From Microcoleus sp. (lineage in GTDB: Bacteria; Cyanobacteriota; Cyanobacteriia; Cyanobacteriales; Microcoleaceae), in the NCBI GenBank assembly GCA_042408215.1, contig JAYFMW010000030.1, forward strand, positions 448,001-512,000: 64,000 nt of DNA, read 5' to 3'. Within the stretch, counting starts at the first letter, position 1. Each line of letters begins with the position of its first letter. Shown piece after piece: positions 14,201 through 26,303 of this stretch. The translations under genes and the position numbers were made by a program. The notes under the pieces are model-generated. The model ran no database searches. It saw only the letters and a list, made by a program, of their open reading frames with translations, and was not told the DNA's origin.

Positions 14201-14277
<77 letters not shown>

Positions 14278-14351: not shown

Positions 14352-14428
<77 letters not shown>

Positions 14429-23503: not shown

Positions 23504-25030
23504 CTACGCGCCGACCGCTTCCTTGGCCGCGTACAACACCTCAGCATTAATTAGAGCAATCCCCCGATCGCGCGCGAACTTCTCAGTATTTCGCTTGACT
23601 TTCCCGCGCACAAAACCAGGAATTTTATTCAACTCAGCTTGTCCATCCTTCGTCCAATTCATATCAGAATCAGCCGAAATTCCCTTAGTAATCACTTCCT
23701 TGGTATCGTGGCCACCGAAGATTTCCAGCAAGTGGTCTTCCATGCCCAAAGTAAAGGAATTGTACACCAAATCTACGCACTGATTCGTGCCTTCATAACC
23801 CAAAAATGGCTTGTAGCCGATCGGGAAATTTTGGACGTGAATCGGCGCAGCAATTACCCCGCAAGGAATATCCAACCGCTTACCGACGTGACGTTCCATT
23901 TGTGTACCGAAAATTGCGGAAGGTTCCGCTTTCGCGATCGCATCTCCGATCGCCCCATGATCCTCCGTCACCAGCACTTCATCGCAATACCCTTTTACCT
24001 CTTCCCGGAACCAATCAGCATCGTGTTTGCAGTAGGTTCCTGCCCACACAACGTGAATTCCCATCTCGCGAGCCAAAATCTTCGTCATCGCCGCTGCGTG
24101 GGTATTATCGCCAAATACGACCGCTTTTTTGCCTGTTAAGTTTTGGCAGTCGATCGATCGCGAAAACCAAGCAGCCTGCGACACAAATCGAGTTTGTTGA
24201 TCGATGAAATCTTCATAATCAACATCAGCACCTTGAGCATTCAAAACTTGCTGAATCTTGCGAATACAGCGCGCAGTTTCCACCACACCCATCGGTGTAA
24301 TATCCACCATCGGCGTGCCGAATTCTTTTTGCAAATACTCCCCGGCCATCATCCCTAATTCCCGATAAGGAACCAGATTAAACCAAGCGCGCGGCAGTCT
24401 TTTCAAGTTATGAACCGAAGCACCTTCGGGAATAACTTCGTTGACTTCTATGCCCAAATCTGCCATCAAACGCTTCAACTCAGTGCAGTCGTGCTGGTTG
24501 TGGAAACCCAGCGTTGACATCCCGATGATGTTGACAGATGGTTTTTCGCTTTTGGCTTCTACTAAATCGCCTTTTTTGCGGGATTTGTTGATGTAAAATT
24601 GGACGATTTGATCCAAAGTGCGATCGGCAGCTTGGAGTTCGTTTACGCGATAATGGTTAACATCCGCCAGCAAAACATCGCCTTTGGCTTCCAATTGAGC
24701 TCGCTCCACGAAGTTTTCCAAGTCTTCTTGCAGAATGCTGGAAGTGCAAGTCGGAGTCAACACGATTAAATCTGGGTGTTCTTCTCTGTCTTTGCGGGTG
24801 ATGTTGTCCACCACTCTTTCTTGGGAACCGCGCGCGAGTACGTGTCTGTCAACGACGCTGGTAGTTACCGGGGTGAAGTCCCGTTCCCTCTCCAGCATGG
24901 AACGCATGACGTTAAAATAGTCGTCTCCGATGGGTGCGTGCATGATCGCATGGACGTTTTTGAAGGAAGTCGCAACGCGCAGAGTGCCGATGTGGGCTGG
25001 CCCTGCGTACATCCAATAAGCCAATTTCAT
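23504..25030 (-). CDS. chlB: Dark-operative protochlorophyllide reductase subunit B
   Basis: [28 protein letters not shown]-terminal [15 protein letters not shown]. Confidence 0.98.
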
Positions 25031-25404
25031 AAAAAATACTCGGTAAGTGGGAAACTCAGAGTTTTTAGACCTGAGAGGAAAACGACTTGGCGGTTTTAAC
25101 CGCCTTGAATCCCCTCCGGCGAGGGGTGGAGGGGTATGGTTGCCCCTCCGGTGAGGTATGGTTGCCTCGATCTCCCTTGCGGGGTAATGTTAGCTTCGCC
25201 AATGTTATAAGAGCTTTTTAGACCTGCAACACTGCCTCAGTGACTTTAAGACTGTTTAATTGCAGATGACAGGGCTCTTTACTAGCTTCGCATCCACAGG
25301 GTGTCATGACTCAAATAACGTAGACCTCTAAGGTCTTAGGCTGGTCAGCACAGCTTGCTCGATCGCTCTAACAAGCTCAGTCCCTTTAGGGCTGAGTTAC
25401 TGAC
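25031..25404 (-). mobile_element. Protein-free IscB-type IS200/IS605 mini-element
   Basis: Minus strand starts GTCAGTAAC plus hairpin and ends TTCCTCTCAG...CTGAGTTTCC...TTTTTT immediately before ATGA of chlB; removal restores AGGAAAAATACCT-ATG. Confidence 0.85.
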
Positions 25405-25425
25405 AGGTATTTTTCCTGATGCTGG
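25170..25425 (-). ncRNA. HEARO / IscB omega-RNA with 5-prime guide from flanking DNA
   Basis: Ordered motifs GACCAGCCTAAG, CTACGTT, GACACC, GGATGCG, GCTAGT, CTGTC, TTAAACAG, CAGTG, AACATTGGCGAAGC. Confidence 0.85.
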
Positions 25426-25749
25426 TTGAGATTTGCCCGATCGGGCTATTACTGCTAGATTTTAGAGTTGTTTCTGATTCTCTCACCGGATGAATCCTTT
25501 AGAAATAATGACTTTCTGAAGATTTACAGATGGCTGCGATCGCTCAAACCCTTTGCTGAACAGGGATTTGACTCCACACTAAAACAACTTTGCGGTTGTT
25601 TTACTGCAATAATTCTTAATTTATTGTCAATTTTCCGCCTGTCACCGCCCGATGCACAATTAACAGTCAAAGTCAAGTTTACTGCCAGATTTTCCGCTGC
25701 TGAGTTTGTATTGATAGTTGATATCAATTCCGGTTGCACCGTCAGGTGA

Positions 25750-25825
25750 TGTTGGCTGTTGGCTTTTGGCTGTTGACTGTTGGCTGTTGACTGTTGGCTG
25801 TTGACTGTTGGCTGTTGACTGTTGA
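25750..25825. repeat. STRR heptamer array (TGTTGGC/TGTTGAC)
   Basis: Direct reading. Confidence 0.9.
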
Positions 25826-26303
25826 TGGTTTGAACAATACCGATGCAACGGTCAACGATATGAGACAACACAAAATAGACCATTAGTGAAAGCAGAATTT
25901 TCCCATATTCTCATATTCAAATCTTCAATCTCAAATCTCAAATCCCTCGGCTGTTTAACCTTGGCAATTGGCTAATAATTCAGTCCACAAAATTAATATT
26001 TCATGACTTGCGTATTTTCATGTAATATGGTGGCGATCGGTCTTCAATCCAGCAATTTCCTGAAAGCTGAGATTGTTTTGTGGTCAGCTTGGCGATCGAT
26101 ACGCTACAGTAAACCCTTGCACAACTCCTATATTTGTAGCTTTCTTTACCCAACTGCATAACTGCGACTTCATCAACAGCGCGCGCAGACAGCAGCATTC
26201 GCCGTCTGCTGTCAAGGCCTTTCCCACACATCCCAAAAGATAACTCTTGAGCGATAATGGAGGATGATATTGACCAAGCACCTAATTTGAGAGAACTTTT
26301 TTT

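Follow-up and report, generated by a model that had tools for sequence, protein, structure and literature searches.

A protein-free IscB omega-RNA mini-element at the start codon of chlB in Microcoleus, and the frequent start-codon position of its family

The IscB nuclease is the ancestor of Cas9, and its omega-RNA scaffolds, the HEARO RNAs, reportedly occur in many copies per cyanobacterial genome, many of them without an HNH open reading frame (ORF). Our subject is one such scaffold in a 64,000-nt stretch of a Microcoleus sp. genome (assembly GCA_042408215.1, contig JAYFMW010000030.1, positions 448,001 to 512,000 of the forward strand; hereafter the window), where a 374-bp element without a protein gene stands directly before the start codon of chlB. 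The nearest precedents in print are the ISC transposons of cyanobacteria which, in the part of Kapitonov, Makarova and Koonin (2016, PMC4810608) drawn on here, start with GTCA and insert at N/ATGA (a slash marks the junction throughout). One of them, ISC1-1_MA of Microcystis aeruginosa, resembles the chlB element in its IS200/IS605-superfamily ends, its 5'-GTCA start and its cyanobacterial host. Elements of this type likewise insert without duplication just upstream of ATGA, share their termini with TnpB elements and are non-autonomous, needing a Y1 TnpA in trans; they encode IscB or IsrB, whereas the chlB element has lost the gene. That part of the paper makes no mention of start codons for the N/ATGA elements.

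The second precedent is the IscB of Geobacillus stearothermophilus, for which we rely on portions of a preprint (Meers et al. 2023, 10.1101/2023.03.14.532601). There, the omega-RNA abuts the right end of the element with the guide lying outside it, the target-adjacent motif (TAM) TTCAT, or ATGAA on the other strand, is also the target of TnpA, transcription from outside is needed, and insertions show an orientation bias with the upstream gene. Omega-RNA-bearing palindrome-associated transposable elements (PATEs) without a protein are expected to be served in trans, and the model is one of homing on the cleaved empty donor joint. The chlB element is like these PATEs in that its right end bounds the omega-RNA, its guide would lie outside and its TAM would be the TnpA target; it differs in phylum and element family. 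What those portions describe is co-orientation with upstream genes, not start-codon docking or displacement of the ribosome-binding site (RBS). The element class, the ATGA target, orphan or trans-acting omega-RNAs and outside transcription are thus already in print in the sections cited, and systematic docking at start codons with RBS displacement, even at essential genes, was not found in the literature searched as full text (supplements lay outside that search). Taken alone, the chlB insertion is ordinary for a known class of transposon; what is useful is the pattern across its family.

At chlB, the minus strand reads ...CAGGAAAAATACCT/GTCAGTAAC...(374 nt)...CCGAGTATTTTTT/ATGAAATTGGC, and once the element is removed the chlB-start side reads ATGAAATTG directly after the leader flank CAGGAAAAATACCT (Table 1). 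The leader upstream of the element reads ...ATCAGGAAAAATACCT, the inserted block 25404..25031 begins GTCAGTAACTCAGCC and ends CCGAGTATTTTTT, and ATGAAATTGGCTTATTGG follows, opening an ORF whose product matches Pfam Oxidored_nitro (3.6e-77) and PCP_red (2.7e-19) and whose N-terminus, MKLAYWMY, is common to all relatives. A cmscan search of Rfam returned a single HEARO (RF02033) match, on the same strand as chlB and spanning all 211 positions of the model, with 135.7 bits against a gathering score of 83 and an E value of 4.9e-28, an identification far beyond chance; the only departure at the RNA level is one weakened stem. No other Rfam family appeared in 24900-25600 at E<=1, save one chance-level microRNA match, and in the whole window only HEARO and two tRNAs reached the gathering score. 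Inside the element there is no ORF longer than 45 aa on either strand, except a 107-aa antisense ORF entering from chlB, and, with no iscB ORF directly downstream, the scaffold of the chlB copy is an orphan, a state for which the published model has room. A sequence-only reading of the window, made without database searches, had described a protein-free IscB omega-RNA element co-oriented with chlB and lying between its RBS and its start codon; that description was correct to the base, and the full-length covariance-model match confirmed the identity of the RNA.

Comparison by BLAST with two 1.6-kb IscB-encoding copies from the same genome (C8 and C3) split the element into three parts. Its nucleotides 1-233 correspond, at 80% identity, to the full-length element from its first base to a point just short of iscB, the similarity ending at about window position 25172; nucleotides 294-373 correspond to the last 80 nt of the full-length copies, 3' of the iscB stop; and the filler between them is without counterpart in the full-length elements compared. 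The same terminator-like hairpin follows the iscB stop in both C8 and C3, and together with the imperfect subterminal hairpin, the presumed binding site of TnpA, it gives the left end the layout usual for IS200/IS605 elements. Terminal inverted repeats and a target duplication are both absent, and the empty site is seamless. Because both of its ends match full-length IscB copies with an IS200/IS605-type left end, the chlB element is, as judged from this anatomy, a PATE-like, protein-free derivative of an ISC (IS200/IS605) IscB transposon by internal deletion. Pairing of a TnpA guide tetranucleotide with TCAT was sought by eye, and none was assignable.

Table 1. Features of the chlB locus and of the element before it (positions in the window)
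Feature	Position	Strand	Basis or remark
chlB (light-independent protochlorophyllide reductase subunit B)	23504..25030	-	intact 508-aa ORF; ORF list, Pfam
ATGA, the chlB start codon and next base; transposon target site and putative TAM	25027..25030	-	
Whole non-autonomous ISC (IS200/IS605) element, 374 bp, without protein gene	25031..25404	-	bounds from 20 empty alleles
Omega-RNA scaffold (HEARO model 1-211), with its 5' end at the right end of the transposon	25184..25404	-	135.7 bits
G+C-rich filler hairpins, about 60 nt	25112..25171	-	gap between BLAST segments; predicted hairpins
Left-end segment, the last 80 nt of a full-length IscB element	25031..25111	-	86-89% identity to C8 and C3
Terminator-like hairpin GGCGGTTAAAACCGCC, then AAGTCGTTTT	25089..25104	-	consensus scan
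Subterminal imperfect left-end hairpin CTCAG-GTCT..GAC-T-CTGAG	25055..25075	-	read from sequence; centroid fold; kept in type-A ends
Last 20 nt of native chlB leader; putative guide of the omega-RNA	25405..25424	-	flank begins exactly at scaffold boundary
Displaced SD-like (Shine-Dalgarno-like) AGGA in native chlB leader	25417..25414	-	
Promoter-like site GTGAGA-16 nt-TAAAAT	25459..25486	-	consensus scan only

The history of the site was read from related genomes. The locus was searched in 40 relatives and the chlB start read in the loci returned, which recovered it in 23 of 24 congeneric genomes, the 24th (G020, 84% complete) matching just the repeat. Twenty of the 23 are empty, with the junction ...AGGAAAAATACCT/ATGAAATTGGC, few substitutions in the leader and nothing duplicated or lost, the very allele that the sequence-only reading had predicted from removal of the element; the site is empty in five genomes of other genera as well. 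Comparison with these alleles shows an element inserted without duplication at N/ATGA, the ATG being the chlB start codon, and an insertion that put 374 nt between chlB and its native leader with the SD-like AGGA. Since GGAG-like motifs stand 7-10 nt before the ATG in the empty sites of other genera (an SD-like GGAG or AGGA being found at that distance in empty alleles of Microcoleus and the five other genera alike), the displaced AGGA was probably the native SD element of chlB. In the three occupied congeners (G013, G023 and G024) the insertion is at the same position. The elements of G013 and G023 are 96.8-97.1% identical to that of the window, versus 92-94% for the adjoining chlB coding sequence, and this better conservation of the element fits either recent spread or constraint. 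The omega-RNA variant of G024 at the same junction is clearly another one, distinct in its inner 3' part, and the assembly breaks inside the repeat (the variant is seen at G024:C172:1-386 and G024:C263:1-187); it either inserted independently at the same site or replaced the first element when family members recombined. Even when well-supported branches alone are counted, a chlB tree requires at least three gains or losses to account for the four occupied rows, and the site is empty in the closest relative, which is 98.7% identical in the first 600 nt of chlB. The tree is one of a gene in related genomes, not of species, and no order of events was drawn from it; the scattered occupancy fits an element that still moves.

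The chlB copy has a large family around it. HEARO matched 70 loci of this genome at E<=0.001, of which 64 scored above the cut-off, and in all 70 the 5' flanks differ up to the scaffold start GTCAG or GTCAA, a boundary that at chlB coincides with the empty-site junction. An IscB-like ORF lies 3' of 20 of the 70, and 18 of these ORFs are 401-445 aa long. The two scaffolds nearest to the chlB copy (79-80% identity) are followed by 423-aa proteins with RRXRR and HNH domains, and of these the C8 protein was compared with PDB, where it matches solved structures of IscB at about 1e-27. For the transposase there are 20 matches to Y1_Tnp (PF01797), 13 of them covering the profile nearly in full, in open frames of at least 124 aa without an internal stop. 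A search with three kinds of 3' end found 51 ends flanked by ATGA: 38 belong to protein-free copies, with a scaffold less than 700 nt upstream and an element of 335-580 nt, three to full-length copies with an IscB ORF between scaffold and end, and ten are solo ends without a scaffold nearby, a heterogeneous set (some stand beside TnpB-like ORFs or nested repeats) that was left out of the counts on the 38. ATGA followed all 37 of the type-A/A2 ends, a count made without an ATGA filter, and nothing is conserved beyond it; this agrees with the N/ATGA target in print. The element singled out by the sequence-only reading is therefore real, but it is not the single unusual case that it was taken for, being one of about 40 similar mini-elements in the genome.

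Two further kinds of end were noted in the same genome. After more than 60 hairpin ends with the pattern GGACGGGG(T/C)TT..ACCC..TTTCTG stands ATAA, GTAA or GTCA (e.g., C30:248779, C6:800673 and C17:207417); these ends are related to the type-B end of the IscB mini-elements and presumably belong to other families of IS200/IS605 elements or PATEs. Some ends with ATGA but no HEARO scaffold also occur just 3' of TnpB-like ORFs (e.g., C6:1057934, C12:73846 and C30:313144), and several of these abut start codons as well, namely those of HisG, a GH57 branching enzyme and a response regulator.

Of the protein-free copies, the greater number stand directly at a start codon, in some cases that of a ribosomal protein gene. 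The two flanks of each copy were joined in silico, and a site was scored as start-like when its ATG opened at least 50 codons and was the first ATG after an in-frame stop. By this rule 26 of the 38 copies are start-like, as compared with 1,055 of 9,800 sampled ATGA sites (10.8%; p 5e-17), so that the expectation of the sequence-only reading, that an ATGA preference would make start codons systematic targets, was borne out. The excess persists with longer frames, at 21 of 38 versus 3,082 of 49,307 ATGA sites (6.25%; p 5e-16) for first ATGs opening at least 100 aa and 15 of 38 versus 3.9% (p 5e-12) for at least 200 aa, and also when the upstream test is dropped (23 of 38 versus 15.5% for at least 100 aa; p 3e-10). 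On profile evidence the docked start codons are genuine, because the alignments to NCBIfam profiles begin at profile position 1-6 and within 16 residues of the N-terminus: those of elongation factor G (EF-G; fusA), S16 (rpsP), L19 (rplS), PntA, DAHP synthase, PcxA and Psb27 (psb27), and also of IsiD, an HpsJ-like protein, an SDR and a caspase-like protein. The 33-34-aa PetL and PetM (petL and petM), which the 50-codon rule misses, are likewise aligned from their starts, as is ChlB with its Pfam profile. One counted case, a 56-aa ORF ahead of metK, is probably false, and the majority of the other protein-free copies have a co-oriented ORF 36-290 nt downstream of them. In the main full-length IscB family the elements end in ...CCAAGGGGGAAGACAG/ATGA, and at 7 of the 11 ends an ORF of at least 72 aa opens. 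HEARO is also abundant in five genomes from other families of the order (9-44 matches each), where at least 8 of 16 protein-free loci fetched end at ATGA (in one case GTGA) opening an ORF of at least 62 aa, a rough count with the ends judged by eye.

Two of the docked loci were followed into relatives. The rpsP site is cleanly empty, as ...GTGCAAGAAG/ATGATCAAA, in all four relatives fetched. At fusA, an upstream TACA/ATGA and the ATGA of fusA itself are about 154 nt apart in the relatives G005 and G016, whereas in this genome (G000:C9:14586-15365) the 154-nt leader is missing and the element spans from TACA to the fusA start; the insertion seems to have been made at the upstream ATGA, with loss of the leader up to the next ATGA afterwards. 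Several other relatives match 22-51 nt of the 3' end of the element directly before fusA. The loss of the fusA leader means that the docked copies do not all derive from a single insertion at a start codon. The fusA-linked element has a repeat of about 197 nt nested inside it (query positions 522-719 of the G000:C9 fusA locus); this repeat has many copies in this genome and in relatives, with tandem arrays about 250 nt apart (e.g., G000:C5:178634-179836 and C6:427791-429692), and is another high-copy mini-element.

Starting from the anatomy, target, trans factors and mobility seen in these genomes, the published model supplies the further steps of a proposal for chlB, whose placing of the guide in the 5' flank and of the TAM at the target site, together with outside transcription and a cleaved empty donor joint, is consistent with the published work. 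A Y1 TnpA of the genome would move the element in trans. Transcription from the chlB promoter would run through the leader into the element, giving a transcript of the 48-nt leader, the scaffold, the tail and chlB, and an omega-RNA whose guide would be the last 16-20 nt of the chlB leader. IscB made from a full-length copy could bind this omega-RNA and cut those chromosome copies that have lost the element, in which leader plus ATGA would be guide match plus TAM, and repair from an occupied copy would then restore the element, i.e., restorative homing. The occupied site would be spared because GTCA, not ATGA, follows the guide match. chlB itself would be translated independently of an SD element, through the unstructured U-rich left-end leader before its AUG; in a centroid fold the last 27 nt or so of the element are unpaired along with the AUG, and since essential genes too are preceded by such ends, initiation must be possible from the U-rich end. 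Many cyanobacterial genes have no Shine-Dalgarno sequence. We regard this account as a whole, a PATE-like mini-element at N/ATGA with an omega-RNA guide from the chlB leader and restorative homing by IscB, as on balance probable. The observations of the sequence-only reading have been confirmed and its interpretation partly supported: its core is right, and its mechanistic part is plausible.

Some of these steps can be set beside further data. The promoter-like site lies 55 nt upstream of the element in a region conserved in the genus, and would, on the consensus scan, place the transcription start near 25452 and make the native leader about 48 nt long. A motif TGAGA-N-AATC-A/T-GAAAC upstream of chlB (window 25465-25500, minus strand) is genus-wide, and five other genera share part of it; overlapping the promoter-like -35 region, it could bind a regulator. 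Among contigs from RNA libraries, X5 (25139-25452) bridges the boundary of chlB leader and omega-RNA, X1 and X2 (24600-25201; two runs of one study) bridge that of element and chlB, and X4, of 3,387 nt, covers 24600-25531; that one contig ends at 25452, the predicted start, is a weak hint. The depth of such contigs is unfit to rank expression, and uncovered parts are not evidence. The joints listed (25059>25181, 25452>25116 and 25531>25606) fit other copies or assembly effects. In run X5 one contig of 350 nt connects 25452 with about 25116 in the backward direction ("goes back 337"), which could reflect the assembly of CAACCATACC repeats or else a molecule in circular or tandem form. As for the target, the 14-20-nt flank from the chlB leader is unique in the genome, and leader plus ATGA has no occurrence in the assembly, so that the ribonucleoprotein would have no target unless the element were excised.

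Several points weigh against the homing account. The nearest IscB-linked scaffold is just 79% identical, and cognate pairing is therefore assumed. In the window copy a 5-nt cluster, CCCCT to AAAGA, breaks 3-4 pairs of one stem of the omega-RNA, and the scaffold scores 135.7 bits versus 147.1 for the G013 orthologue, 11 bits lower, so that the window copy may be a weakened guide RNA. A consensus scan of 24900-26000 found no promoter-like site on the minus strand inside the element, and the terminator-like hairpin, 60-70 nt before the chlB AUG, could cut read-through. The RNA contigs come from environmental libraries that may include DNA or relatives, and are a hint only. For the family as a whole, the empty sites made in silico are, to judge from fusA, not always ancestral. 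The start-codon bias could also have arisen, without adaptation, from selection on which insertions are tolerated or retained, as start codons would by rough estimate (the share was not computed) make up a large part of the ATGA sites that are co-oriented, transcribed and non-coding.

The rival that survives best is an inert relic, a single insertion carried as a tolerated passenger, its RNA unused by IscB, with chlB expressed less, a loss that would be affordable since a light-dependent enzyme can stand in for DPOR in the light. The broken stem of the window copy speaks for it, as do a lesion of its own in the scaffold of the G023 orthologue and the 20 of 23 relatives that lack the element. 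A relic would sit poorly, however, with two intact ends and a score far over the family cut-off, with an identity among three species above that of the chlB coding sequence, and with an occupancy that changed at least three times on the chlB tree, as befits a mobile element; we hold it to be unlikely, if still deserving of weight. Less credible again is a domesticated cis-regulator, in which the leader RNA, alone or bound by IscB, would control read-through into chlB or its translation and act as a switch on dark chlorophyll synthesis. The element does part chlB from a conserved SD-like motif, brings a terminator-like hairpin with it and is better conserved than the adjoining coding sequence, but the same family stands before unrelated genes (ribosomal proteins, EF-G and PetM/PetL), which argues against a role specific to chlB, its presence is patchy among close relatives, and nothing ties it to light or oxygen signals. 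The switch had been raised by the sequence-only reading and drew support from nothing that we found, and we consider it improbable. Removal of the element from the transcript by IStron-like splicing or precise processing, another of its suggestions, would solve the RBS problem neatly by rejoining SD element and AUG in the mRNA, and fusions of IS200/IS605 elements to group I introns are known in other bacteria, but it is scarcely credible given that Rfam yields HEARO and no intron family at E<=1 in 24900-25600 and that the element consists only of omega-RNA and transposon-end sequence. Nothing found supports it, and in four RNA-library runs no contig joint skipped 25404..25031 (contigs only, hence nothing firm).

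Beyond the homing account for chlB lies a broader and more tentative idea, which we think less likely than not: that in these cyanobacteria IscB mini-elements use the start codon (ATG plus A) as target and TAM as a way of life, with promoter capture, a portable SD-independent leader and spread by IscB. If it were true, docking at start codons would capture a host promoter for a guide that needs outside transcription, and it would disturb a leader alone, the coding sequence being spared. The left end would be a portable SD-independent translation leader, tolerated even by the genes of ribosomal proteins and EF-G, and dozens of genes, including chlB, would have exchanged their own ribosome-binding sites for one shared leader brought by the elements. 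In polyploid cells, trans-acting IscB would drive each docked copy through all chromosome copies. The family is a natural test set, with about 40 guide RNAs that lack a nuclease gene, each fused to a host leader and with empty alleles in sister species. It bears on whether orphan omega-RNAs are really used in trans, on whether IscB elements survive where they do because they need transcription from outside, and on the translation of cyanobacterial genes, including essential ones, whose SD region has been pushed 350-580 nt away. Annotators should also note that a start is not necessarily wrong when a structured 0.4-kb repeat stands immediately upstream of its ATG.

Two minor features of the window remain to be recorded. 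Short GGCTGTTGAC-like tandem repeats lie upstream of the chlB region (25740-25800, plus strand), and CAACTGA/CAGCGAA runs similar to them occur upstream of rpsP in relatives. The two tRNA genes are at 14201-14274 and 14352-14425 on the plus strand, 78 nt apart and with identical Rfam scores (63.3 bits).

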